43,032 nucleotides of DNA from Thermoproteota archaeon (GCA_034660895.1 JAYEKF010000044.1:1-43032), one strand, 5' to 3'. Counted from the stretch's first letter, positions 2-12,418 are shown. Notes: generated by a model not told the origin, from the sequence alone. A program made the numbers and translations.

Positions 2-1585
2 GTAAGCGTTGAGAGAAGTGTCTTAGTTGTTGGCGGCGGAATTGCTGGAATACAAGCTTCGCTGGATTTAGCTAACGCTGGATTCAAAGTTTACCTTGTG
101 GAGAAAGCACCTAGCATAGGTGGACGCATGGCGCAGTTGGACAAGACTTTTCCAACGCTTGATTGTAGTGCGTGTATATTAACACCGAAAATGGTTGACG
201 TAGCTAAGCATCCAAACATAAAACTGTTGACAAATGCTGAAGCCGTGAATGTGAAGGGGTTTGTTGGAAATTATGAAGCCTCGATTCTAAAGAAGCCTAG
301 ATATGTAGATGAGGATAAATGTGTAGGCTGTGAGCTCTGCACAAAAGCATGCCCAGTTAAAGTCCCAGATAAGTTTAATGAAAGTTTAAGCCAAACACGT
401 GCAATATCCATTTATTCGCCACATGCAGTGCCAAAGGTTGCCGTAATAAACCCGAACTACTGCTTAAGGTTGAAGTATGATAAAGATGTATGCGGCAAAT
501 GCCTAGAAATATGCGATGCAAAAGCCATAAACTTTGAACAACAACCAGAAACAATCCAGCTTAAAGTAGGCGCAGCAGTCATAACGGTAGGCTCAGAAGT
601 TTTTGACGCTTCCAAAATGCCGGAGTTTGGTTACGGACGCTTCCAAAATGTTATATCAAATATCGAGTTCGAAAGGATTTCAGACGCATCTGGACCGACT
701 GGCGGAAAGATTCTTTGCCCAAAAAACGGCGAACCACCTAAAACTATAGTTTTTATCCAATGTGTTGGTTCTCGGGACAAGCGGTTCCACGAATATTGCT
801 GCCGTGTCGGATGCATGATTAGCTTAAAACAAGCAATTCTTGTTCGTGAAAAGCTTGGCAAAAACGTGAACATCCACATCTGTTTTAATGATCTCCGAGC
901 TTTTGGCAAAGGTTATGAGGAATTTTATAGACGGGCAAGAGATCTACAAATCAACTTTATTGCTGGATTGCCATCTGAAATTCGCAGCGTTGCGGATGGT
1001 TCACTTTACTTTGACGTTTACGACAGAGGAACAAACAAGCTTTTGGAAATGCATTCAGACCTAATCGTGCTGGCAAACGGGCTTGTTCCAAGCAGCGACC
1101 TTGGGAAAATCAGTGAATTGTTCCATGTTTCAAGAAGCATAGACGGTTTTCTGTTAGAAGCACATCCGAAGCTGAGGCCGCTTGAAAGTCCCACAGCAGG
1201 GGTTTTTCTTGCAGGTGTATGTCAAGGACCCAAGGATATCCCAGATACTGTAGCGCAGGCAAGTGGGGCAGCGGCAAAAGTCATAGACCTGTTGTGGAGT
1301 GGTGAAATTGAGCTTGAGCCTTTGAAAGCTGTGGTGAACAAAGACTTGTGCAGTGGATGTAGAATTTGCGAGTATGTTTGTCCATATGTTGCAATAGAGA
1401 TGAAAACCGAAATTGTAGGCGGCATTGAAAGGCTTAGAGCCGAGGTTGTTGAAGCCATGTGCCAAGGCTGTGGCTTATGTGGCTCAGCATGCCCAGCCAA
1501 CGCTATTAAAATGCAACATTACACCGACGAACAAGTTTTAGCTCAGGTCCACGCAGCGTTCACTGCGAAGCAGGAGAGTAGCTAA
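2..1585 (+). CDS. hdrA: Heterodisulfide reductase subunit A-like FAD/FeS protein; 5'-partial, with the frame open to the window edge
   Basis: The frame is open from nt 2. Residues upstream of the listed Met read VLVVGGGIAGIQASLDLANAG, a dinucleotide-binding motif. An HdrA-type CVGSRD...YCCRVGC motif is present, along with several CxxCxxCxxxCP ferredoxin-like motifs. Confidence 0.9.
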   Translation, partial: VSVERSVLVVGGGIAGIQASLDLANAGFKVYLVEKAPSIGGRMAQLDKTFPTLDCSACILTPKMVDVAKHPNIKLLTNAEAVNVKGFVGNYEASILKKPRYVDEDKCVGCELCTKACPVKVPDKFNESLSQTRAISIYSPHAVPKVAVINPNYCLRLKYDKDVCGKCLEICDAKAINFEQQPETIQLKVGAAVITVGSEVFDASKMPEFGYGRFQNVISNIEFERISDASGPTGGKILCPKNGEPPKTIVFIQCVGSRDKRFHEYCCRVGCMISLKQAILVREKLGKNVNIHICFNDLRAFGKGYEEFYRRARDLQINFIAGLPSEIRSVADGSLYFDVYDRGTNKLLEMHSDLIVLANGLVPSSDLGKISELFHVSRSIDGFLLEAHPKLRPLESPTAGVFLAGVCQGPKDIPDTVAQASGAAAKVIDLLWSGEIELEPLKAVVNKDLCSGCRICEYVCPYVAIEMKTEIVGGIERLRAEVVEAMCQGCGLCGSACPANAIKMQHYTDEQVLAQVHAAFTAKQESS

Positions 1586-2101
1586 ATGGGTTTGGTTGAT
1601 TTGATGTCCATGGCTAAACCGAATGAGGAATCGCGAACGAAGATTTTGGTGAAACTGGGTAGAAACGAGTTTATGGACTGTTTTCAATGTTTGAAGTGCA
1701 CTAGCGGATGCACGGCTTTGAAGCTTTTAGAGTTGAAGCCTCATGAGATAATGAAACTTGTTAGGTTAGGCTTTGTAGATGAGCTCGCCGCCTCAGAAAT
1801 AATTTGGACCTGTGCAACATGCTTAAAATGTACGCAGCGATGTCCGCAGAAAGCGTCGCCATACCATGTAATAATGGCTTTACGAAACCTCGCTGTGGAA
1901 CGTGAAGCTAAAGTGCCGGAAGCTTACTTAAAGGGTATTTCACAAATACTTGAAAACGGGCTAACACAGACAATTCAGAAGGTTACAACGCGCAAAATGG
2001 AAACCTTCGACCGTGCAAATCTCAAATTACCGGAAATTCCTGCTCCAAAAGAAAGTTTTCAGACAGTTTTCTTAAAAGCTTTGGAGGAAAAACAGGAATG
2101 A
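1586..2101 (+). CDS. hdrC: Heterodisulfide reductase subunit C
   Basis: Two cluster motifs are present: CFQCLKCTSGC and CATCLKCTQRCP. The ATG starts immediately after the hdrA TAA stop. The size is 171 aa. Confidence 0.85.
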   Translation: MGLVDLMSMAKPNEESRTKILVKLGRNEFMDCFQCLKCTSGCTALKLLELKPHEIMKLVRLGFVDELAASEIIWTCATCLKCTQRCPQKASPYHVIMALRNLAVEREAKVPEAYLKGISQILENGLTQTIQKVTTRKMETFDRANLKLPEIPAPKESFQTVFLKALEEKQE

Positions 2102-2973
2102 AGATCGCCGTTTTCTGGGGATGCCGTATATTAACAAGCCAATATGCTTATGAAATGTCTGTCCGCCAAGTTTTCCCAAAGCTTGGAATCGAACTTGTTG
2201 ATTTGCGAGAAGCCACATGTTGCGGTGATCCTGTTAAAAGTATTAACATTTTTGCAGCGGACTATTTAGCAGTTAGAACCCTAGCCTTAGCAAATTTAAC
2301 TGGATTAACGGATTTGCTTATTCCTTGCAACCGTTGCCACTTCACGATTTCCGAGGCAAAACATAAAATGAAAACAAACGAAAAACTTCGCTTAAAAATA
2401 AGTAAGCTTTTGAACGCAGAGGGGTTAGAATATAATTCGAACATTAAAATTTGGCATGTAATCGACTTGCTGCATGATGCAGTAGGCTTAGAAAAAATTA
2501 AAGAAATAGTGAAAAAACCGTTTAAAGGCTTAAAATTAGCTAGTCATACGGGTTGCCAGATTATTCGTTACAGCGACCTTGGACGAGTCGATGATGCAGA
2601 GGATCCGCGAAAACTTGATGAATTAATTAATGTGCTCAGCGCAGAAACTGTTGATTATTCGGAGAAACTGGATTGTTGCGGTGCAATGTTGACTTATTCG
2701 CATCAGGATGCAGCTCTTTCTTTAGCTGGTTCAAAGATTAAGGCTCTGCAGGATTCGGCTGCAGACGGTCTAGTGGTTTCTTGTCCAGCATGCCAAATGA
2801 TGTTCGACTCTGAACAGAAGGATGCTGGAACGGTAGTGGGAGCCAAACTTAACCTTCCAGTCTTATACTATACGCAGTTGCTTGGGTTAGCCTTAAACAT
2901 GGAAGAAGAGAAACTTGGTTTGCACTTGAACCAAAGCCCGGTTAATCAACTTCTAACGAGAATTTCAGCTTAA
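2098..2973 (+). CDS. hdrB: Heterodisulfide reductase subunit B (CCG-domain protein)
   Basis: Two CCG motifs are present (ATCCGDP and LDCCGAM). An ATGA start/stop overlap with hdrC indicates translational coupling. Confidence 0.85.
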   Translation: MKIAVFWGCRILTSQYAYEMSVRQVFPKLGIELVDLREATCCGDPVKSINIFAADYLAVRTLALANLTGLTDLLIPCNRCHFTISEAKHKMKTNEKLRLKISKLLNAEGLEYNSNIKIWHVIDLLHDAVGLEKIKEIVKKPFKGLKLASHTGCQIIRYSDLGRVDDAEDPRKLDELINVLSAETVDYSEKLDCCGAMLTYSHQDAALSLAGSKIKALQDSAADGLVVSCPACQMMFDSEQKDAGTVVGAKLNLPVLYYTQLLGLALNMEEEKLGLHLNQSPVNQLLTRISA

Positions 2974-3047
2974 TGTTTGGGAAAAAGTAGAATATACAGA
3001 GAGTTGAAATACCAAACGTTTCGAAGATATGAGTAAAATGCCACCTC

Positions 3048-4364
3048 TTGGACAAAATACTTATAGATAGAACAGTTGCTACACTAGTCCAAATGGATGG
3101 AAAAACAATGGTGTTTGATTTTACGGAAACCGAGAATCAGAAACTCATGATAAAAAGTGTTAGGGAATGGTGCGAAAGACACCTAACGTTTGAACGAGTT
3201 AGAGAAATGGACGACAAAGGACATCCTTTTCCCAAAGATGTTGTTGAGGGGTTATGCGGCTTAGGTGTTGTCATGGGAACGGTTCCAGTGGAACATGGTG
3301 GTTCTGGCATTGATTGGCTGACTCAAAGCATGATCTCTGAGGTTATAGGATATTACGATCCAACCATTGCTACTGCAGCGGGTCTTATGGCTGTTGAAAC
3401 TGGCTGGGGATTCACTCTCGATAGGTATTGCAGCGAAACTGTTAGAGAGAAATATGTAAAACCAGCAATCAAGGGTGAAAAATTCGTTGGCATAGCAACT
3501 ACGGAGCCTGGAGGGGGATCAGATGTCGCAGCGTTCAAGTCAACAGCCAAAAAAGACGGAGAGGAGTGGATCATCAACGGAGAGAAAACGTTCATCAGCG
3601 GTACAGAAGAATGTGAGAAGTGGGGAGGTGGTTACTGGATTAACGTAAGAACTGGCCCAGCACCGCCAAAAACCCCTCACAGAAACATGACTTCTTTCTT
3701 CCTGCCGATAGATGCTGAAGGCGTAGAGGTGCAAGAACCGTACAGAGATGCGGGTAGAATGGCCCTTTCCACCGGCGGGTTCAAAATGGAGGACGTGAGG
3801 CTTCCAGACGAGTACAGGTTGGGAGAGGAGGGAAAAGGCTTCTATTACACCATGGAAGGATTTGATAACGCCCGAATGATGATAGGAGCCAGTTGTGTAG
3901 GGATCATTCAACGCATAATCGATGAAGCGGTACCTTACATACAAGAAAGAAAAACTTTTGGACGACCTCTCGCTAAGTACGAAGCAATCCAGTTTGAACT
4001 GGCTGAATTATATCGAGAAATGGAGGCATTAAAACTGATGACTCGAAAAACAACATGGATGCAAGACATAAGATACGGGGAGGAAGGGATGCCTGAAAAA
4101 ACTTCGGAGGCTAAAACCTTCAAGCCGACTGAAGTGGCTAACTGGATATCCATGATTAAATGGAAAGGCCCGTCTCTCGCTTTGGAAGCCGCGAAAAAAG
4201 CAATGATCTGGTTTGGAGCAGCAGGGTACACTAAAGAATACATTTTCGAATCCGCGTGGCGTGGCGTAATGTCTTACGTTGTAGGAGCCGAAGGAGGATT
4301 AAACATTCAGAAGATAGTCGTTGCGAGAGAACTCCTCGGAAGAGACTATGTTCCCTACAAGTAA
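3048..4364 (+). CDS. Acyl-CoA dehydrogenase family protein
   Basis: ACAD hallmarks are present: GIATTEPGGGSDVAA, FISG, and the C-terminal AEGGLNIQKIVVARELLG. The listed start is TTG 3048. The in-frame ATG at 3108 (MVFDFTETENQ) looks more natural. Confidence 0.88.
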   Translation: MDKILIDRTVATLVQMDGKTMVFDFTETENQKLMIKSVREWCERHLTFERVREMDDKGHPFPKDVVEGLCGLGVVMGTVPVEHGGSGIDWLTQSMISEVIGYYDPTIATAAGLMAVETGWGFTLDRYCSETVREKYVKPAIKGEKFVGIATTEPGGGSDVAAFKSTAKKDGEEWIINGEKTFISGTEECEKWGGGYWINVRTGPAPPKTPHRNMTSFFLPIDAEGVEVQEPYRDAGRMALSTGGFKMEDVRLPDEYRLGEEGKGFYYTMEGFDNARMMIGASCVGIIQRIIDEAVPYIQERKTFGRPLAKYEAIQFELAELYREMEALKLMTRKTTWMQDIRYGEEGMPEKTSEAKTFKPTEVANWISMIKWKGPSLALEAAKKAMIWFGAAGYTKEYIFESAWRGVMSYVVGAEGGLNIQKIVVARELLGRDYVPYK

Positions 4365-4421: not shown

Positions 4422-5555
4422 ATGACGAAAACGGGCGCCTACTTCTGGCTTGGAGACCAAGCTTGCGCAGAAGCAGCTATAGCAGCTGGATGCCGTTTTT
4501 TTGCTGGATACCCGATCACTCCAGCAAGCGAAATAGCCGAGCATCTCGCAAAAAGGCTTCCGCAAGAGGGCGGTATAGCGATTCAAATGGAAGATGAAAT
4601 GGCTTCGATTGCGGCTGTTATAGGCGCCAGCTGGGCTGGAACGAAAGCCATGACAGCCACATCTGGACCCGGCTTCAGCTTAATGCAGGAGCTTATTGGT
4701 TATGCTTTCATGACTGAGACACCTTGCGTCGTCGTTGATGTGCAACGTGTCGGGCCGAGCACTGGACAGGCGACGAAGTGCGGTCAGGGAGACGTAATGC
4801 AGTCTAGGTGGGGAACTCATGGCGACTACATGTCTATTGTCTTATCGCCGAATTCTGTGCAGGAAATGTTTGAGCTTACAGTACAAGCCTTTAATCTTGC
4901 GGAAACCTACCGGACGCCGGTTGTCTTACTTGCGGATGGGTTAATAGCTCATATGAGGGCGCCTGTTGAAATACCGCCGCTGGATAAGATAGAGGTTGTA
5001 GACCGCAAAAAGCCAAATCCGGGAGAAAACCAGTTCTTCGGACCTGATGAGGTTCCGCCAATGCCTTCTCTCGGCGAAGGCTACAACGTACCTGTTACTG
5101 GTTCAACTCACGACGAAAGGGGGATACGATTCACGGCTGACCCACAAGTGCATCGTAGGCTTGTTGAAAGGCTCATGCGGAAAATAAGCAGGAACGCGAG
5201 CCGAATTATAGACGTGGAAGCTTACAACGTGCAAGGCTGCGATGTCGGCTTAGTTTCTTTCGGTTGCACTTCTCGTAGCGTATACGAGGCGGTGAAAACT
5301 GCAGAGGAAGAGGGAATAAACGTTGGATACGCCCGACTGAGGACTATGTGGCCTTTCCCGGAGAAAATAGTAGCTGCTATGGCTCAGCACGCCAGAGCTA
5401 TAATTGTTCCGGAAATGAATTTGAAGCAGCTCTTCTACGAGGTGCAGAGAGCCGTGAACGGCTTAACCCAAGTAGTTCCCCTTAACAAGATTGGAGGTGG
5501 AGAGCTTTTCACGCCAGAAGAGCTGCTTTCTGAAATTAGGAGGTGGCGGTGTTAA
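4422..5555 (+). CDS. 2-oxoacid:ferredoxin oxidoreductase, alpha subunit (substrate specificity unknown)
   Basis: The N-terminus AGCRFFAGYPITPASEI...QMEDEMASI...TATSGPGFSLM is typical of KorA/PorA-type alpha subunits. Confidence 0.9.
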   Translation: MTKTGAYFWLGDQACAEAAIAAGCRFFAGYPITPASEIAEHLAKRLPQEGGIAIQMEDEMASIAAVIGASWAGTKAMTATSGPGFSLMQELIGYAFMTETPCVVVDVQRVGPSTGQATKCGQGDVMQSRWGTHGDYMSIVLSPNSVQEMFELTVQAFNLAETYRTPVVLLADGLIAHMRAPVEIPPLDKIEVVDRKKPNPGENQFFGPDEVPPMPSLGEGYNVPVTGSTHDERGIRFTADPQVHRRLVERLMRKISRNASRIIDVEAYNVQGCDVGLVSFGCTSRSVYEAVKTAEEEGINVGYARLRTMWPFPEKIVAAMAQHARAIIVPEMNLKQLFYEVQRAVNGLTQVVPLNKIGGGELFTPEELLSEIRRWRC

Positions 5556-6385
5556 CCGAGGCTTTTTCTGTTAAACGTTACATGAGAGACTTAAAGCTTC
5601 CTTTCTGTCCCGGATGTGGATGCTTCACAATTATAAACTCCTTTCTACGATCAGTTCACGAACTAGGATACGAAGACCTCAGCAGATTCGTTTTCTGCAG
5701 CGGAATAGGCTGCGCAGCTTGGATTCCCTCACCATATTTCAAAGCAGACTCCATCCATACGCCGCATGGTAGAAGCATACCAGTTGCAACTGGCATAAAG
5801 CTAATGCGTCCTAACCTCAACATGGTCGTTTTCGGTGGAGACGGCGATATAGCCGGCATAGGCCTAAGCCACCTCATTCACGCAGCTAGGAGAAACCTCG
5901 ATATCACAGTTATAATGGTGAATAACATGGTATATGGGATGACTGGCGGACAAGTAGCGCCCACAACCCCTTTTAAGACGAAGACTACAACAACGCCTTA
6001 CGGAAGCTTCGAACATCCGTTAGACGTAACCCGTCTTGTTGCAGCTGCCGGCGCAAGCTACGCGGCTAGATGGACAACAGCCAACGCTAAAGAGCTTACG
6101 GAAGCTTTTAAAAGTGCTGTTTCAACGAAGGGTTTCGCCTTCGTTGAGGTTGTAAGCCAGTGTCCAACAGCGTTTGGTAGGACAGCCGGGTTTAAAGATG
6201 CAGCTGAAATTCTTCGGTGGTTCAGAGAAAACTCGGTTCAGCTTAAGGAATCTGATAAATTGAGTGAAGAGGAATTGGCTGGAAAGATAGTTGTTGGTGA
6301 GTTTGTGCGTAGAGAGTTGCCGACGCTTACAGAAAATGTTTACGCAGTTTTAAAGGAGGCTAAAAAACATGCGGAAACAAGTTGA
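5543..6385 (+). CDS. 2-oxoacid:ferredoxin oxidoreductase, beta (TPP-binding) subunit
   Basis: The motifs CPGCG, GGDGD...NN.VYGMTGGQ (TPP motif) are present. There is a GTG start with an AGGAGG upstream, and a 13-nt overlap with the alpha subunit gene. Confidence 0.9.
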   Translation: MAVLTEAFSVKRYMRDLKLPFCPGCGCFTIINSFLRSVHELGYEDLSRFVFCSGIGCAAWIPSPYFKADSIHTPHGRSIPVATGIKLMRPNLNMVVFGGDGDIAGIGLSHLIHAARRNLDITVIMVNNMVYGMTGGQVAPTTPFKTKTTTTPYGSFEHPLDVTRLVAAAGASYAARWTTANAKELTEAFKSAVSTKGFAFVEVVSQCPTAFGRTAGFKDAAEILRWFRENSVQLKESDKLSEEELAGKIVVGEFVRRELPTLTENVYAVLKEAKKHAETS

Positions 6386-6902
6386 AATTAGGATTGCTGG
6401 GCTTGGCGGTCAAGGAGCAGTTTTGGCTGGTCAAATTCTCGGTAGAGCGGCTGTTTACGATGAGAAGATGGCTGTTCAAACCCAGAGTTACGGAGCTGAA
6501 GCAAGAGGGACGGCAGCTAAAAGCGAAGTCATAATTTCCAATGGAAAAATATTGTTCCCAATAGTTAGGAAATGCGACGTACTTGTAACCATGAGCCAAG
6601 CTGCCCTAGACGTCTACGTAAAAGACTTGAGGGAAAACGGAATTCTTATATTGGAAGAGAATTTGGTCCCGCATGCTCCAGAAGTTAAAGCTAAGGTTTT
6701 CAAAATCCCTGCTACAAAGGTTGCAGAAAAAGAACTACAATCTAAAATGTATGCTAACATTGTCATGCTCGGAGCTTTAACAAAAATAACGCAGATAACA
6801 AGCGAAAAAGCTACTAAGAAAGCGATAGTTGACAGCGTTCCACCAGCAACAAAAGAAAACAACTTAAAAGCCTTCAAAATAGGTCTCGAACTTGCAAAAT
6901 GA
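6369..6902 (+). CDS. 2-oxoacid:ferredoxin oxidoreductase, gamma subunit
   Basis: IRIAGLGGQGAVLAG...SYGAEARGT is the typical gamma-subunit signature. The gene overlaps the beta subunit gene. No delta (ferredoxin) subunit gene is present. Confidence 0.88.
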   Translation: MRKQVEIRIAGLGGQGAVLAGQILGRAAVYDEKMAVQTQSYGAEARGTAAKSEVIISNGKILFPIVRKCDVLVTMSQAALDVYVKDLRENGILILEENLVPHAPEVKAKVFKIPATKVAEKELQSKMYANIVMLGALTKITQITSEKATKKAIVDSVPPATKENNLKAFKIGLELAK

Positions 6903-7042: not shown

Positions 7043-7270
7043 ATGGTTTTAGATGAGAAAGAAGCTGTTCGGATGATAGAGTCAGAGAAGAAAAAACAAG
7101 AAGTTCACGATATAATGGACAAGTTGTTACAAGACCCAAAAGTCAGGAAAATACTGAAGGAAAAAATGAAAAAGTATCTGGACACCCGAAAGCAACTAAC
7201 TAATCCACTTCTCCAAAGACGTTTTGGTTCATTGAAAATTTTCAGGGGGAAAGCGAAGATACTTCTATAA
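7043..7270 (+). CDS. Hypothetical small Lys/Glu-rich protein (75 aa)
   Basis: This is only an ATG-initiated ORF in an otherwise empty intergenic stretch. There is no clear RBS and no recognisable motif. Confidence 0.3.
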   Translation: MVLDEKEAVRMIESEKKKQEVHDIMDKLLQDPKVRKILKEKMKKYLDTRKQLTNPLLQRRFGSLKIFRGKAKILL

Positions 7271-7345
7271 AAACGTTCCGTAAAACTTTAGAGAATCACT
7301 TCTTAGTTAAAGCTTGGAATAAACGAAAAGCCAAAGGTAAATTCT

Positions 7346-7393
7346 TTGGAGGCGTGTCACCGCCTAGCCCCAACTGAAGGGTAGAAAGAGAAC
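7346..7393 (+). repeat. Leader repeat copy 1 (48 nt), ending 22 nt upstream of the start codon of the 7416 gene
   Basis: The sequence ttggaggcgtgtcaccgcctagccccaactgaagggtagaaagagaac matches 7886-7933 at 45/48 positions. It contains the AGGCG-N6-CGCCT and GCCC-N8-GGGT stem-loops. Confidence 0.85.
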
Positions 7394-7415
7394 TTAAAAA
7401 ATAAGGAGATGGAAA

Positions 7416-7856
7416 ATGAAGGTTTCAAAGGAGTGGTTGCTCGTTGCTTTAGCGTTATCTCTCGGTTTTGTGTATGGAGCTGTTTCATTCTTCTCTAGAA
7501 TCTTTTTCCTCGCAGATATTCAGTTTATTCTAATTCTTGTATTAGTGAGATTTGCAGTTGACCCCTTCCTCATGTTCACGGTTTTCTACGTTTATGGGAG
7601 AAAAGTGGATTTGAAAGCGAGGCTGACCACCATGATAGTGTTGTTGTTCACCGGTTTATATGTTGGAAACTTTTTGGGGAACATCGTTACGTTTCCAGTC
7701 GTCACGCACTTGCGACACTCCCCCAGCTTCCTTTCGATAGTTTTTCGAGGTTTGTTTCCAACCGTAATCATGAGTCCTTTCTTTGTCGCCTTATCCGCCT
7801 CAGCTATAGCTTACATAAGAAACACTAAAACCTCAAGTGAAAAGGGGAAAGCATGA
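7416..7856 (+). CDS. Hypothetical polytopic membrane protein (146 aa, about 4 TM segments)
   Basis: There is an AAGGAG RBS 7 nt upstream of the ATG. Four hydrophobic segments are present. The N-terminus MKVSKEWLLVALALSL is paralogous to the small ORF at 9895. Confidence 0.7.
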   Translation: MKVSKEWLLVALALSLGFVYGAVSFFSRIFFLADIQFILILVLVRFAVDPFLMFTVFYVYGRKVDLKARLTTMIVLLFTGLYVGNFLGNIVTFPVVTHLRHSPSFLSIVFRGLFPTVIMSPFFVALSASAIAYIRNTKTSSEKGKA

Positions 7857-7885
7857 ACCATACGGAAGCCAACGCTGAACTTGTG

Positions 7886-7933
7886 TTGGAGGCGTGTCAC
7901 CGCCTAGCCCATAGTGAAGGGTAGAAAGAGAAC
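7886..7933 (+). repeat. Leader repeat copy 2 (48 nt), ending 21 nt upstream of the start codon of the 7955 gene
   Basis: It matches 7346-7393 at 45/48 positions. The three differences (7911, 7912, 7914) all fall in the loop of the second predicted hairpin. Confidence 0.85.
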
Positions 7934-7954
7934 CTAAGTAAAATTGGAAAGAAA

Positions 7955-8599
7955 ATGAGAAAAGTTGAATGGAACCGGAAAACGATATCTGTTGTTTTGT
8001 TAGCGGTGGTTCTACCAGTAAGCCTTACAGTAGCGTTTCAACTGTTTGGAAGAGGAACCAAGATAGCTGAGAACACAACCTTGGAACCCGTACAATGGTC
8101 TTTTCAGAGACCGAATCAGTATGTTTCCATAGGAGACCTGCTTAACGCCTCCTACGCTGACGATGGCTTGTCAGCAACATTCCATATGATACTTGCGGAT
8201 TATCTCCCAAGAGTTGGCTCGCTTCACTATGATACTGTACGAATACGCATCAAAACGAACGCAACAACTGACCTGAACGGTTACATAGAGAGCGTTAACG
8301 TTCTCTTCCAGGAAGAACGGTCAGCATCTAGGGTAAGTCTACAGGAGACGGATTTTGATTTCCAGAATCTTTCTTTGGTGGATAAAGCAGAAGGGATTAA
8401 CGGGGCTTCTATGAGGTTGGATGGAGTGAACAATCCAAGTAAGGTTGCCCTTTCAGCGGTAGCGCTATGGAAGCTTCTTACTCTAAACACGCAGTCGCAC
8501 CAGATGGAAGTAGCCTACGAAATCGTCTACTACAACGGAACAGCCTACAACAGAGTGGTTCAACCATTCCAACTCAACATCTTAGGTGCAGAAGAATGA
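7955..8599 (+). CDS. Hypothetical signal-anchored extracellular protein (214 aa)
   Basis: An N-terminal hydrophobic anchor is present (ISVVLLAVVLPVSLTVAF). There are five N-x-S/T sequons. The module ADYLPRVGSLHYDTVRIRIKTNATT is paralogous to a module in the next gene. Confidence 0.7.
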   Translation: MRKVEWNRKTISVVLLAVVLPVSLTVAFQLFGRGTKIAENTTLEPVQWSFQRPNQYVSIGDLLNASYADDGLSATFHMILADYLPRVGSLHYDTVRIRIKTNATTDLNGYIESVNVLFQEERSASRVSLQETDFDFQNLSLVDKAEGINGASMRLDGVNNPSKVALSAVALWKLLTLNTQSHQMEVAYEIVYYNGTAYNRVVQPFQLNILGAEE

Positions 8600-8635
8600 A
8601 AATCAAAAGAAAACTTCCTGACAAGAAAAATTCTC

Positions 8636-9892
8636 TTGGCAACCGTTATAGTTGCAATGTTGCTGTTATCCAGTGTTCCTCCAGCGTTCGCCTCGAGCAA
8701 TTGGTCAAAACCAAGACCCTCCGAATACACCGTTTACAATGAGACCATTGGAAACGCAGATAGTAATAGTAAGTGCTCAGTAGGTTTAGGCGTGGAGATA
8801 TCTGATTATATCCCAAGCACTGAGATTATAGATTATGACACGCTTCGCTTGAGAATAATCACTTCTGCGAACACTAGGAAATCAATTGAATATGGCTGTG
8901 GGCTGTCTTTGATGAGGGAGTATGAATGGTATAACGTTTCTACCCCGACGAATATTAATGGCGATAATGACGGTGAGTGGCGTGACATGTTCACCTTCCT
9001 CTACTACGGCGTTGAATATCACAAAGTTTGGGTTTGCAGCAACGGCTTTCTCTGTTTGAACAAAACCTGCACCAGCCCCAACCCGCAAAGCATCCCGAAT
9101 ACAGGGGAGCCCAACCCAGTTATCGCAGCGTTCTGGAGAGACCTTCACCCCGAAGAGGGAGGCAACATCACCTACGGTTTCGTTGACTATGACAACTATT
9201 TTGTTGTAAGTTGGAATGGGGTTCCCGACGACGATGATGTCCCTCAAACGTTCCAGATAGTCATAGAGAATCAACCGGGAGGCAGCCTCAGCCACAACAA
9301 AATCTACTTCCAGTACAAAGACATCACAAAAAATCGTTACACAGTGGTTGGAGTGGAAAATCAAATAGGTAATCGCGGCGACTACTACAATTACAACGAC
9401 CTCCAAAACGAATTGATTCTCGAATGCAGTAATTCCGCCGCAGGGCTGTACCGTCTCTCCCGGCTGAAAATTAGGCTGACCAAAGACGACGACTACGCAA
9501 AGATAGAGTTAAAAGAGACAGATGTAGGCGGATACAACGTTTTCCTAAAAAATAATGAGAATCCGTACGGAGAGGTTTTTCTAGCCGGTGCCGAGTTCGT
9601 GGCTGCTGTGCTCCTCCCAGCGAAATTGGGCATTATGCTTAGTGCCATGTTAATTGCATATGCTTTAGGCGGCGTTATGGCTTGGGTGATTTTTAAGCCG
9701 AATGGCTTGCTCCCATCATTATACTCTTTATGCCCAGTAATTTTTGAAGCCCCGCTGTGGATTCTTTTGAAGCTGATAGAGATAAACATAGGGTTTGCCT
9801 TCGTAGTTGTAGTTTTAGCTACAGCGTTGGGAAACCATCTTTTGAACAAGGTTTTCGGGGGAACTGGAGTAACGTATGCTGAAAGGAGATAA
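8636..9892 (+). CDS. Hypothetical secreted protein with a NIDO-like central domain and a C-terminal multi-TM anchor (418 aa from TTG; the true start may be ATG 8596 with a frame correction)
   Basis: A signal-peptide-like segment is present (LLATVIVAMLLLSSVPPAFA/SS). There are five N-x-S/T sequons. The central domain reads VWVCSNGFLCL...PVIAAFWRDL...FVVSWNGV...TFQIVIEN...IYFQYKDI...VGVENQ. Three C-terminal hydrophobic segments follow. Confidence 0.75.
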   Translation: MATVIVAMLLLSSVPPAFASSNWSKPRPSEYTVYNETIGNADSNSKCSVGLGVEISDYIPSTEIIDYDTLRLRIITSANTRKSIEYGCGLSLMREYEWYNVSTPTNINGDNDGEWRDMFTFLYYGVEYHKVWVCSNGFLCLNKTCTSPNPQSIPNTGEPNPVIAAFWRDLHPEEGGNITYGFVDYDNYFVVSWNGVPDDDDVPQTFQIVIENQPGGSLSHNKIYFQYKDITKNRYTVVGVENQIGNRGDYYNYNDLQNELILECSNSAAGLYRLSRLKIRLTKDDDYAKIELKETDVGGYNVFLKNNENPYGEVFLAGAEFVAAVLLPAKLGIMLSAMLIAYALGGVMAWVIFKPNGLLPSLYSLCPVIFEAPLWILLKLIEINIGFAFVVVVLATALGNHLLNKVFGGTGVTYAERR

Positions 9893-9894
9893 GA

Positions 9895-10047
9895 ATGAAA
9901 ATCTCGAAGAAGTGGTTGCTGATTGCTTTAGTATCGGTGGTTATTGCTGTTGTAACCGTGTATTTTCTAGCGAAGGACATAGAGTATTTGAGCCGCTTAA
10001 AGACTATCGGTGGTCATCCTCCAAAACAGGTGGTATTACAGGTTTAG
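9895..10047 (+). CDS. Hypothetical small single-TM protein (50 aa), not in the ORF track
   Basis: The ATG lies 2 nt after the upstream TAA stop and has an AGGAG RBS. MKISKKWLLIALVSVVIAVVTVYF matches the N-terminus of the 7416 protein at 11/16 residues. The ORF ends at TAG 10045-10047. Confidence 0.5.
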   Translation: MKISKKWLLIALVSVVIAVVTVYFLAKDIEYLSRLKTIGGHPPKQVVLQV

Positions 10048-10077
10048 GAACTGAAAGCTTTGACACGTTTGAGGATA

Positions 10078-10392
10078 ATGGCTGAAGTTTTAGTTATTGT
10101 TGCCAGTGTAGTCGTAGCGATGCCAAAAAATTTCCACGTTTGCATTAGTAAAGTGTCTGGGTTTAAGTTAGTTTTCGTAGTACTTTTAATAGGGACGATA
10201 ATTTGGGGAGGCATGCTCTACCATACTCTTCAAGAGTACCAAAGCATGATTGAAGAAATACCTGACTGGTTACGTAAGTACTGGAATTATGTTCCGTTTT
10301 CTTGGTCTTCTTGCAGTACCTCCCTTCTCGAACCTGCAGAGGTGCTTAAAGCAGCTGAAGTTGATGGAAACTACTTCTGTAAAGGGGTCTGA
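10078..10392 (+). CDS. Hypothetical membrane protein (104 aa from ATG 10078; the ORF track starts at TTG 10060)
   Basis: A GAGG lies 4 nt upstream of ATG 10078. Two hydrophobic segments are present. The ORF is in the same frame as 9895-10047, separated by a single TAG. Confidence 0.5.
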   Translation: MAEVLVIVASVVVAMPKNFHVCISKVSGFKLVFVVLLIGTIIWGGMLYHTLQEYQSMIEEIPDWLRKYWNYVPFSWSSCSTSLLEPAEVLKAAEVDGNYFCKGV

Positions 10393-10516
10393 GAGGGTGA
10401 GGAAGACTTGACGGCTAACTTTAGGATGTACAGAATAGGTGAACCTGAGTCTTCCAGTCCCTTCGAGGGCGTTTTCTCCTTGACGATTAATGCAGACGTA
10501 TCTCGCGCCGACCTAA

Positions 10517-10609
10517 GACGTAATTGACGTACTCTCGGAACCGATGAACATTCAGAGAATTGTCATCGCACGGGAACTGCTGGGAAAAGAATGCATATCC
10601 TACCAATAA
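10517..10609 (+). pseudogene. 3'-terminal remnant of a second acyl-CoA dehydrogenase gene
   Basis: The frame translates to DVIDVLSEPMNIQRIVIARELLGKECISYQ*. This compares with ...GGLNIQKIVVARELLGRDYVPYK* at the end of the intact ACAD (3048-4364). An in-frame TAA at 10514-10516 and multiple stops lie upstream. No N-terminal 350 aa is present. Confidence 0.7.
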
Positions 10610-10649: not shown

Positions 10650-11627
10650 TTAACCATCTTTCAGTATTTTCTTTAGCTCGGATGTCAAGGCGGGAATTAT
10701 GTCGTAAAGGTCTCCAACCACGATGTAGTCCGCAACTTCAAAGATCGGCGCTTCAGGGTCTTTGTTGACTGCAACAATCACCTGTGAATCTCGTATTCCA
10801 GCCACATGTTGAATCATGCCGGATATGCCGCAGGCCACGTAAAGCGAGGGGGTAACCTTTCGTCCAGACAGTCCAATCCAATCTGTGAACCATCTTCGGT
10901 CTTCTGCGATTGGGCGGGAGTTTCCGATTTGTCCTCTAAGCGTCTCCGCCAGCTGGTTGAACATTTCAAAGTCTTCTTTGTTTTTCACTCCTCTTCCGCC
11001 GCTGATGATTACGTTTGCTTCTTCTAACGCAACTTTTCTGGCTTCAACTTCCTTTGTTTCCACAATTTCAGTTTTTGGCTCCTCAATTTTTACGTCTACT
11101 TCAGTGATTTCCCCGGTTTTTTCTTTCGGCTCCAATTTTTCGAAAACTCTGGGTGGCACAGTGACGATTTCGGGTTTGGTTTTACACATCATTTTTGCCA
11201 CGGCGTTTCCTCCATAAACAATCCGTTTCATTGTTAACTGTCCGTTTTCGTTTATGTTCAGTTCTGTGCAGTCTGGAACACACCCGGTTTCCAGTCTGAC
11301 GGCTAATCTTGAGGCTAATTCTTTTCCGTTGCATGTTGAACCGATTAGGATGATTTCGGGTTTCCGGCGGGCTGCAAGTTCGGTGAGAACACTGAGGTAC
11401 GGCTCTAACCGAAATTTTTCAAGTTTAGGATTGTCCATCAAGAGAATTTTGTCGGCTCCGTGTTGGATAAGTTGCTGGGCTTGGTTTTTAGCGTTCTTTC
11501 CTAATAGGATGGCGGTCAGTTTCGTTTGCAGTTTGTCGGCGAGCTGTCTTCCTTTTCCCAACAACTCTAACATTAAGTTACGGTTTTCTGAGAAAACCCA
11601 AACTTCGCAGTTGGTCACCGTTTTCAC
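10650..11627 (-). CDS. etfA: Electron transfer flavoprotein, alpha (large) subunit
   Basis: ETF-alpha motifs are present: IISGGRG, PSLYVACGISGMIQHVAG, VAVNKDPEAPIF. A GTGA overlap with the etfB stop is present. Confidence 0.92.
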   Translation of the reverse strand: MKTVTNCEVWVFSENRNLMLELLGKGRQLADKLQTKLTAILLGKNAKNQAQQLIQHGADKILLMDNPKLEKFRLEPYLSVLTELAARRKPEIILIGSTCNGKELASRLAVRLETGCVPDCTELNINENGQLTMKRIVYGGNAVAKMMCKTKPEIVTVPPRVFEKLEPKEKTGEITEVDVKIEEPKTEIVETKEVEARKVALEEANVIISGGRGVKNKEDFEMFNQLAETLRGQIGNSRPIAEDRRWFTDWIGLSGRKVTPSLYVACGISGMIQHVAGIRDSQVIVAVNKDPEAPIFEVADYIVVGDLYDIIPALTSELKKILKDG

Positions 11628-12418
11628 CTCCCGATTACGCCCTCTTGAATCAATGCTTTAGCCAGTTTCTCCGCAATTTCCTGCGGGCTTTTCCCTTCTA
11701 TCACCATTCTTTTTCTTTCTGTTTTTGGCGCCAGTACCTCAATCACTTTTACGCACAAGCCTGCTTTTCCAACTTTCTCTTTTGGGATTTGCAGGTCGTC
11801 TGCGTTCCATGTTATGAGTGGTTTCTTAGACGCGTTCATAATGTCCATAAGCGATGGAATTCTTGGTTCGTTGATTTCCTTTGTAACCGTGACTAACGCA
11901 GGTGTTTTGGTTTTCTCAGTTTCGTAGCGGTCTTTTAGGTTTCTTTCCGCGGTTACGATGTTGCCATCGAGGACAAGTTTTCTTGTGTAGGTGATCACGG
12001 GAACGTGAAGTTGTTCGGCTAGTTGCGGGCCAACTTGACCAGCGAAACTGTCGATTGAGGCTTCCCCGCATAGAATAAGGTCGAATTGACCGAGTTTTCG
12101 AACGGCTTTGGCTAATATACGTGAAGTAGCTAAGGTGTCTGAGTTTTCGAATGACGGATCTGTGAGGAGATAGGCTTGGTCTGCTCCCATGGCGAGGGCT
12201 TCCCTTAGATTTGTTTTTGCTTCTGGCGGGCCGAACATGATGGTTGTGATTTTTCCGCGCTGCTTTTCTTTTATTCTTACGGCTTCTTCCAGCGCGTTTT
12301 TGTCGAAGTCGCTGATTTTTTTGGGAGCGTCTGCAACAAGGGGTTTTCTTGTTTTCTGGTCTGTTTTGAGTTGGGTGACGTCTATTGCCTGCTTGAGGCA
12401 GACGATTAAGTTCACCAT
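11624..12418 (-). CDS. etfB: Electron transfer flavoprotein, beta (small) subunit
   Basis: ETF-beta motifs are present: VCLKQAIDV, NALEEAVRIKE, DLILCGEASIDSFAGQVGPQLAEQL. Confidence 0.92.
   Translation of the reverse strand: MVNLIVCLKQAIDVTQLKTDQKTRKPLVADAPKKISDFDKNALEEAVRIKEKQRGKITTIMFGPPEAKTNLREALAMGADQAYLLTDPSFENSDTLATSRILAKAVRKLGQFDLILCGEASIDSFAGQVGPQLAEQLHVPVITYTRKLVLDGNIVTAERNLKDRYETEKTKTPALVTVTKEINEPRIPSLMDIMNASKKPLITWNADDLQIPKEKVGKAGLCVKVIEVLAPKTERKRMVIEGKSPQEIAEKLAKALIQEGVIGR

Follow-up and report, generated by a model that had tools for sequence, protein, structure and literature searches.

The window analysed here, a stretch of 43,032 nucleotides, comes from a Bathyarchaeia chromosome, as judged from the best matches of its proteins and the names of their sources. 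Between the genes for 2-oxoacid:ferredoxin oxidoreductase (OFOR) and the electron-transfer flavoprotein (ETF) gene etfA, it carries six co-directional open reading frames (ORFs) within 7043-10392, named below by their start positions. A preliminary description made from the sequence had pointed to these six ORFs, and all of them are present in the ORF list. The cluster probably comprises genes for exported and membrane proteins, and its organisation seems best described as two units, each with a structured leader of ~70 nucleotides (nt) at its head: the first leader precedes the gene for a four-segment membrane protein (7416), and the second precedes a pair of genes (7955 and 8636), after which come two small membrane ORFs. 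The leader, a side point in the preliminary description, is the most significant feature here. It is probably a new cis-acting RNA element that marks genes for exported proteins. The features of the locus, with protein lengths in amino acids (aa), are as follows.

98-2973: HdrA/C/B-like iron-sulfur proteins (Pfam)
3048-4364: acyl-CoA dehydrogenase (ACAD), 438 aa (Pfam)
4422-6902: OFOR alpha, beta and gamma (Pfam)
7043-7270, plus strand: Lys/Glu-rich hydrophilic ORF of 75 aa, uncertain as a real gene (ORF list)
7325-7394, plus strand: leader copy 1, ending 21 nt 5' of the 7416 start codon (covariance model R1, 84.4 bits, E = 7e-24)
7416-7856, plus strand: protein of 146 aa with about four membrane segments (hydropathy)
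7863-7934, plus strand: leader copy 2, between 7416 and 7955, ending 20 nt 5' of the 7955 start codon (R1, 72.8 bits, E = 2e-20)
7955-8599, plus strand: first gene of the pair, a protein of 214 aa with an N-terminal anchor (residues 13-31) and a predicted extracellular beta-sandwich (hydropathy, AlphaFold2)
8596-9892, plus strand: second gene of the pair, a NIDO-like surface protein (homology); the listed ORF is 8636-9892, 418 aa, with a TTG start
9895-10047, plus strand: ORF of 50 aa with one membrane segment (hydropathy)
10060-10392, plus strand: last ORF as listed, 110 aa, one or two membrane segments (ORF list, hydropathy)
10153-10392, plus strand: the last gene re-started at GTG 10153 (MSGFKLVFVVLLIGTIIWGG), a small membrane protein of 79 aa (homology)
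10544-10609, plus strand: remnant of an etf-linked ACAD, its last 21 codons (MNIQRIVIARELLGKECISYQ) and stop (homology)
10650-12418, minus strand: etfA and etfB (Pfam)

That two of these genes are preceded by a near-identical leader, as had been noticed beforehand, is borne out by a repeat with 92% identity over 52 nt (7346-7397 versus 7886-7937, 540 bp apart); none of the shuffled windows gave two leader matches, and covariance model R1, run over all 43 kb, finds these two copies and no more. Copy 1 consists of a flank GAAAAG, a helix P1 (CCAAAGG/UUCUUUGG), a second hairpin P2 (AGGCG-UGUCAC-CGCCU), an A, a third hairpin P3 (GCCC...GGGU) and the tail AGAAAGAGAAC, and in copy 2 P1 reads CCAACGC/GUGUUGG. 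The consensus of the aligned leaders (106 sequences in alignment A1, 116 in A2) has a 5' flank UUAAG, a 7-bp P1 with the loop U-R-A-N-U, the same P2 and single A, a P3 of GCCCU-AANNGA-AGGGC, and then the purine tail, which is invariant. Minimum-free-energy folds of both window copies give the three hairpins (z = -2.3 for copy 1 and -2.5 for copy 2), and in the minimum-free-energy and centroid folds of both, the Shine-Dalgarno (SD) sequence and the AUG are unpaired. By inspection, the leader contains no complement of its tail that could form a pseudoknot or pair with it. The loop and 3' strand of P2 (GUCACCGCCUA) may bear a resemblance to the 3' end of archaeal 16S rRNA.

The case for a folded RNA lies in the changes among copies. 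In A1, 96.4% of cells pair, versus 31-48% in controls with the 3' strand shifted by 1-3 columns, and its covariation score was reached by 0 of 500 shuffles. Within P1, 95% of cells pair and five of the seven pairs change on both sides (one is A-U 64/G-C 36, another C-G 53, U-A 31 and G-C 11), and 50 distinct P1 stems occur in 116 copies; P3 likewise includes a U-A to C-G exchange. Because G.U oppositions outnumber A.C oppositions (122 versus 30, binomial p = 2e-14; 99 versus 7 within P1), the strand that folds is the sense strand. A 32-nt insertion into P3 of one leader (L053:1587-1688) itself folds into two hairpins (z = -4.1), and in another leader (L122:113-238), which also carries a large structured insertion, the polarity of the P3 stem is flipped (GGGG-AAUUGAAG-CCCC) with the AAUUGA loop kept. 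In diverged copies found with R1, the changes in P2 are compensatory or wobble, with U-A in place of C-G in L021 and a G-U pair in L042, and three further loci (L068, L104 and L105) have altered loops. The compensatory changes thus identify the leader as a structured cis-acting RNA element, with three predicted hairpins folding in the sense strand. A coding role, as an upstream ORF or as an N-terminal extension (gene callers at times translate the leader as LEACHRLALIEGQKEN), was also considered and was rejected: no frame is preferred by the starts downstream (34/39/33 over the three frames), and of the 34 leaders that are in frame with their gene, 19 run into stop codons.

To describe its distribution, we scanned the exact 21-base core of the leader, GGAGGCGTGNCACCGCCTAGCC, over metagenome contigs and one genome per species. 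The core occurs at no fewer than 120 metagenome loci and at 18 genome loci, 17 of these in metagenome-assembled genomes labelled Bathyarchaeota, Bathyarchaeia or unclassified archaeon and one in an Asgard chromosome; 2.9 million viral contigs gave one or two matches. Further copies, diverged or partial (the partial ones keep P3 and the tail), are found by R1, as are arrays of up to four: copies stand on the same strand four at a time in L095 and two at a time in L010, L014, L022, L033 and the window, and a 1.4-Mb contig holds at least six in two clusters. At the gathering threshold, Rfam 15 (4227 families) matches only two tRNAs in the whole window, and at E<=10 over 7250-7990 it gives only chance matches to models of small nucleolar and long non-coding RNAs. 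A literature search by keyword and for the core sequences of the leader returned nothing relevant. Membership in a known RNA family, small ribozymes included, was set aside on the lack of an Rfam match and, for the hammerhead, on a P1 loop (CUGAAU) that by eye is not the hammerhead core. The leader is a genuine structured element of wide occurrence and falls outside the Rfam families.

Three observations on individual copies may be recorded here. The Asgard copy (L139:5733-5803; CP147780.1, the complete chromosome of Ca. Atabeyarchaeum deiterrae) is a full leader scoring 81 bits and stands 5' of a 159-aa protein with a signal-like start; a leader and its gene may here have passed as one unit from one phylum to another. 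On the minus strand of L095 (1992-2060), the 5' half of a leader (TAAGCC...GGAGGCGG) is inverted in place, directly before an intact 3' half (CGTGTTCACCGCCTAGCCC...). Metagenome contigs often start or end at or inside a leader (for example L006, L009, L015, L043, L045, L067, L101 and L112), which would be expected if a multi-copy repeat breaks short-read assemblies.

What the copies have in common is the kind of gene that follows. An SD sequence and a start codon lie at a median of 26 nt 3' of the leader (14-57 nt, 5th to 95th percentile), and the protein then encoded nearly always begins like an exported or membrane protein: among 117 non-redundant ORFs behind leaders, 105 (90%) show a hydrophobic segment in their first 50 residues, as compared to 191 of 616 other ORFs of the same loci (31%; Fisher p = 8e-34). 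With their N-termini masked, the 117 proteins fall into 73 clusters. Most have no Pfam match, and the matches that do occur are of extracellular types (PKD, NosD/beta-helix, peptidases A4, M28 and M12, rhodanese, PEGA, GOLD and collagen). Upstream, 40 of 102 leaders follow a divergent gene and 62 a co-directional one. One leader-headed secreted family recurs (L028, L037, L057, L113, L121 and L143); its members are ~115-180 aa long, carry C-x-C-D-H soon after the signal peptide and have no Pfam match.

We propose that the leader would act in the mRNA, as an element of the 5' untranslated region (UTR) or between cistrons, where a putative trans-acting factor (a protein, the ribosome or a small RNA) would recognise it and thereby give the mRNAs of exported proteins a common fate, be it co-regulation, stabilisation or targeting. 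In its fullest form, this proposal makes the leader a Bathyarchaeia-wide tag of the secretome, carried on the mRNA and read by a dedicated factor that routes, co-translates or jointly regulates the messages for exported and membrane proteins; we put the probability of this tentative reading at roughly one in four, and we know of no described precedent for an RNA-level tag of this kind in archaea. What favours a trans-acting factor over a ligand is the absence of a visible expression platform, together with loose spacing to the start codon. Several points weigh against the proposal. The exact core occurs just once or twice per species-representative genome, and the leader therefore cannot mark the whole secretome. 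All leaders were collected through one exact core, so that their diversity is under-sampled and the association with export is measured on this subset; in the main set, moreover, P2 is fixed by the search pattern and so cannot show covariation. Finally, TATA-like hexamers peak sharply 30-31 nt 5' of P2 in 30 of 119 copies, about a quarter, in which case transcription would start at the foot of P2 and P1 would not be transcribed at all.

This last observation leads to a different account, in which the leader is a promoter or operator in DNA: a transcription factor would bind the invariant P2 and P3 and govern a regulon of surface genes, with P2, P3 and the tail a passive 5' UTR. Such an account would explain why P2, P3 and the tail are conserved in sequence beyond what pairing alone demands, and why partial copies consisting of P3 and tail have A/T-rich boxes 20-30 nt upstream; the 40 copies that follow a divergent gene must in any event bring their own promoter. 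However, covariation in P1 with so strong a bias toward G.U (99 versus 7) is not expected of a DNA site bound by a protein, and the structured insertions in P3 and the flipped stem of L122 keep the hairpin and not the DNA sequence. Position also speaks against it, as some 20 copies are found no more than 100 nt past the stop codon of an upstream gene that points the same way. Among them is copy 2 of the window, which lacks a TATA box and begins 7 nt behind the 7416 stop. We regard a mainly DNA-level role as unlikely. A ligand could instead be sensed by the leader itself, as in a metabolite- or ion-sensing riboswitch reporting the state of the cell envelope, and this would be in keeping with a fold that is compact and highly conserved, lies in 5' UTRs and has loop and junction nucleotides that do not vary. 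Yet the leader does not look like a ligand-switched riboswitch that sequesters the SD, because the predicted folds leave both SD and AUG free and the distance to the start (14-57 nt) is loose; the predictions offer no alternative pairing that would involve the SD or start codon, no terminator-like expression platform is seen, partial copies with P3 and tail only persist before genes, and the genes downstream share a cellular destination rather than a metabolic pathway. Ligand sensing is accordingly very doubtful.

Alternatively, one could envision the leader as a recombination site or cassette boundary, attC-like or belonging to some other mobile module, through which cassettes of exported-protein genes are shuffled. 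The same-strand arrays do part short unrelated ORFs, as where 7416 is flanked by two copies; near-identical cores occur in distant lineages, the Asgard genome among them; half copies exist, one with a flipped 5' half (L095); and the gene pair of the window recurs in unrelated settings, where in L001 and L002 tyrosine recombinase genes lie at a distance of 5-8 kb. Against this, neither the top 25 Pfam families of the window nor the surroundings of the L095 array include an integrase or transposase, and the leader has three short hairpins, where attC forms a single long imperfect one, and lacks GTTRRRY/RYYYAAC core sites. Its ends (UUAAG...GAGAAC) are not terminal inverted repeats, and no flanking direct repeats or duplications are seen in the 116 aligned copies. 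Wobble pairs are tolerated on the coding strand, opposite to the bottom-strand folding of attC, and copies always face a downstream SD and start codon; a mobile module would also sit uneasily with the one or two matches in viral contigs. This makes shuffling improbable as the function of the leader. The simplest possibility, that the two window leaders are a recent local duplication of functionless intergenic DNA, accords with their 92% identity at a distance of 540 bp, but it is refuted by the occurrence of the same core at more than 138 independent loci, by the 50 P1 stems among 116 copies, and by the leader being ~90% identical (by eye) between the window and L001 where the adjacent proteins are only 46% identical.

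If the leader is an mRNA element as proposed, it invites comparison with three known kinds of element. It resembles structured mRNA leaders such as riboswitches, ribosomal-protein leaders and the 5'-UTR elements of Rfam in being a short fold before an SD and start codon, in its covariation and in its many copies per lineage. It differs from them in lacking both a match in Rfam 15 and an expression platform, and in that its genes have export or membrane insertion in common, not a pathway or complex. The mRNAs of E. coli ompA and of bacterial S-layer proteins carry stable 5' hairpins that act as stabilisers and leave the SD open, and the leader is similar in placing hairpins near the 5' end of surface-protein mRNAs with an open SD; however, such stabiliser hairpins of envelope mRNAs are gene-specific and not known to be conserved in sequence over unrelated genes or taxa, whereas the leader is nearly invariant over at least 73 gene families and also stands between cistrons. 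Integrons, which were reportedly found in archaea in 2022, provide the third comparison, as attC sites and gene cassettes likewise alternate a repeated structured element with short, diverse, same-way ORFs; core sites, a single hairpin, bottom-strand folding and an adjacent integrase were looked for in the window, in L095 and in the alignments and were not found.

Bathyarchaeia are among the most abundant archaea of anoxic sediments, and we know of no account of the way in which they regulate their cell surface; from archaea as a whole, we know of few cis-regulatory RNAs. The leader would be a new candidate for that short list. Should the proposal hold, a single RNA element placed over dozens of unrelated exported-protein genes would amount to a post-transcriptional or transcriptional "surface regulon" that can be read from sequence, the leader could serve as a marker to predict secreted proteins in metagenomes, and as a tag of the secretome it would be an RNA-level counterpart of the signal peptide. 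In the part of the literature that we could consult, reports that Bathyarchaeia were grown in the laboratory are few. The protein side of the cluster matters less than the leader, the gene pair and the small membrane proteins being members of uncharacterised families.

The pair headed by leader copy 2 is nonetheless a recurring unit. A homologue of 7955 lies directly 5' of a NIDO-family gene, homologous to 8636, in L001, L002-L004 and L049, in neighbourhoods that are otherwise unrelated, and we therefore regard 7955 and 8636 as a conserved Bathyarchaeia gene pair. In L049 (1667-4917) the pair is tandemly duplicated, and of the two NIDO-like copies the upstream one can be aligned just with residues 4-211 of the protein in the window. 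The 7955 family gave 34 matches, that is, 33 members of ~215-220 aa besides the window protein, none of them named; several are encoded on contigs equal in length to those that carry NIDO-family matches. The two window proteins also resemble one another (7955 residues 48-105 versus 8636 residues 23-80, 31% identity, E = 2.5e-8), as the preliminary description had said, and its count of five N-x-S/T sequons in each is exact. Of those in 7955, N102, N138 and N194 are at asparagines invariant across 31 family members. Conserved sequons together with an export signal or anchor fit glycosylated archaeal surface proteins, and we infer this to be the probable nature of both.

The AlphaFold2 model of 7955 (pLDDT 86) has a helix at residues 8-31 followed by a beta-sandwich. 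Its Foldseek neighbours are generic sandwich domains such as hemolysin/leukocidin, the Als and Cnm adhesins and an archaeal cohesin (TM 0.3-0.44), and the rim domains of pore-forming toxins, with which it shares an all-beta sandwich outside the cell (E = 4e-6 to 2e-4 among the 50 matches listed); however, TM-scores of only 0.25-0.45, large root-mean-square deviations and 6-16% identity mark this as a generic resemblance of fold and not as family membership. The model of 8636 (pLDDT 66) is beta-rich over residues 30-270 and has no neighbour in the PDB at E < 0.2 by Foldseek, and profile searches of PDB sequences with the 7955 and 8636 families were empty.

By hydropathy, 8636 has a signal-like N-terminal segment and about three hydrophobic segments at its C-terminus. 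Its family numbers 34 homologues, all from Bathyarchaeia-type metagenomes and mostly ~675 aa in length. The NIDO profile PF06119 matches residues 130-181 of the window protein at borderline strength (23.8 bits, below the cut-off of 25; E = 5e-5; aligned over positions 2-51 out of 186 in the profile), and it matches 20 of the 34 family members at E<=0.001 (best E = 1e-10); a divergent InlB B-repeat is matched in 10 of the 34. The claim that these genes belong to no nameable family has thus held for the cluster in that Pfam, NCBIfam, PADLOC, PHROGs, the PDB and Foldseek give no specific match, with this borderline NIDO hit as the qualification. We know of no function for the NIDO domain itself, and the 8636 family is distinguished from NIDO domain proteins by being archaeal, by its pairing with a second gene and by its own domain set (InlB B-repeat and Cys-initiated C-terminal domain).

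Both ends of 8636 depart from the family. Homology to the family starts at 8624, 5' of the TTG, and runs to ~9700 only, corresponding to family residues 4 to ~365. At the 5' end, an ATG at 8596 overlaps the stop codon of 7955 (ATGA) and encodes MKIKRKLPDKK, after which the family frame continues one base off; deletion of one A from the run at 8626-8630 yields a proper signal peptide, MKIKRKLPDKK followed by ILLATVIVAMLLL, and the start thus restored (MKIKRKLPDKKILLATVIVAMLLL...) matches the signal peptides of the family well. ATG 8596 is likely the ancestral start of the NIDO-like gene. At the 3' end, the family's C-terminal ~310 aa, made up of a beta-rich region, the B-repeat, a glycine linker and the Cys-initiated C-terminal domain, are missing, a hydrophobic tail stands in their place, and no remnant of them was found elsewhere in the window. 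The gene is either slightly mis-assembled or decaying, and it looks partly decayed. A 308-aa protein from a Logan assembly (P0001) is 100% identical to the window protein until ~9546-9552 and then reads FLKIMRIRTERFF instead of FLKNNENPYGEVF; the divergence is a frameshift in a second A-run and would represent homopolymer variation between assemblies or populations. Full-length homologues (P0002, P0005, P0006 and others) end in a glycine-rich linker and a Cys-initiated domain (CPTLFVWNG..YVDYGVIDIH), and single members of the family give weak matches to Hint domains (PF05203, PF14623). The Cys-initiated end, which the window copy lacks, could be an autoprocessing module.

Among the remaining genes of the cluster, the 7416 family has 39 representatives at E<=0.001 (best identity 61%), and its closest homologue (L148) has a partial leader in front with P3 and tail kept. 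The first 13 codons of 7416 and 9895 are paralogous, as had been described (protein E = 1e-4; DNA 82% identical over 38 nt), and the 9895 ORF may be the remnant of a longer gene. By eye only, the N-terminus of 9895 resembles that of a leader-headed 545-aa protein of L107, with a tblastn match that is not significant. The last gene, which the preliminary description started at 10078, is present; its start is more likely GTG 10153 because of homology to leader-associated genes elsewhere, its homologues adjoining leaders in L033, L041, L070, L061 and L078 (tblastn, E = 1e-7 to 9e-5). The membrane and exported architectures proposed beforehand are upheld by hydropathy for 7416, 7955, 8636 and the small ORFs 9895 and 10060. 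The hydrophilic 7043 is not a membrane protein: it has neither a hydrophobic segment by hydropathy nor a sequon by count, matches no family and has no homologue within the fetched loci, and a gene is called at the same place on an identical Logan contig.

For all six proteins, PADLOC and PHROGs were empty, and what NCBIfam matched did not rise above chance (E = 0.06-0.25). An origin of the cluster in a defence system or phage was rejected on the empty PADLOC and PHROGs searches and on the scarcity of leader matches in viral contigs. The earlier view of a one-off island did not survive comparison, since the 7955/8636 pair, the 7416 family and the last gene all recur elsewhere; the cluster proteins add new members to Bathyarchaeia families that are conserved, though uncharacterised.

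The surroundings of the cluster were compared with those of four relatives picked by ETF-alpha identity (L144, 82%; L150, 69%; L146, 68%; L149, 66%). All four have etfB-etfA and then an intact convergent ACAD of 405-417 aa, and none of them carries the cluster. The truncated 3' stump of an ACAD that had been noted in the window is real and tiny: its 21 codons share 85% and 80% identity with the ends of the intact L144 and L146 enzymes (C-termini), as against just 57% with the ACAD that the window itself has at 3048, a paralogue with 50-55% identity to the etf-linked enzymes. At the DNA level, homology to L144 sets in abruptly at window position 10546 and extends over etfA and etfB as far as 12473, with 79% identity. 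Because the relatives keep an intact ACAD and the window only 21 codons, ancestral sequence was evidently replaced on the right side, and the cluster probably sits at a lineage-specific rearrangement that removed all but those 21 codons of the etf-linked ACAD. To this extent the suggestion that the block had replaced ancestral sequence stands. The adjacency of OFOR and ACAD/etfAB that it presumed to be ancestral is seen in none of the four relatives, and the replaced block may be larger than the island first described and may include OFOR and the 438-aa ACAD paralogue. The placement of the cluster is an ordinary rearrangement scar.

Around this scar, the ~150 nt between the last cluster ORF and the ACAD remnant (10393-10543) contain no ORF and show no homology to the relatives. 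The G+C content along the window has no step, and in the rest of the window neither an integrase nor a transposase is among the 25 top Pfam families. A strong GC skew at 34-36 kb was dismissed as a special feature, as it reflects just ordinary minus-strand genes. In L149, HdrC-HdrB-ACAD converges on etfA, which is the backbone of the window minus the 438-aa ACAD, OFOR and the cluster. There (L149:11038-15102) the HdrA-like gene is divergent from HdrC-HdrB-ACAD, whereas in the window (98-4364) the four genes run the same way; since gene orientations differ in this manner and the window ACAD is a 55% paralogue, the Hdr/ACAD/ETF backbone appears to have been rearranged more than once.

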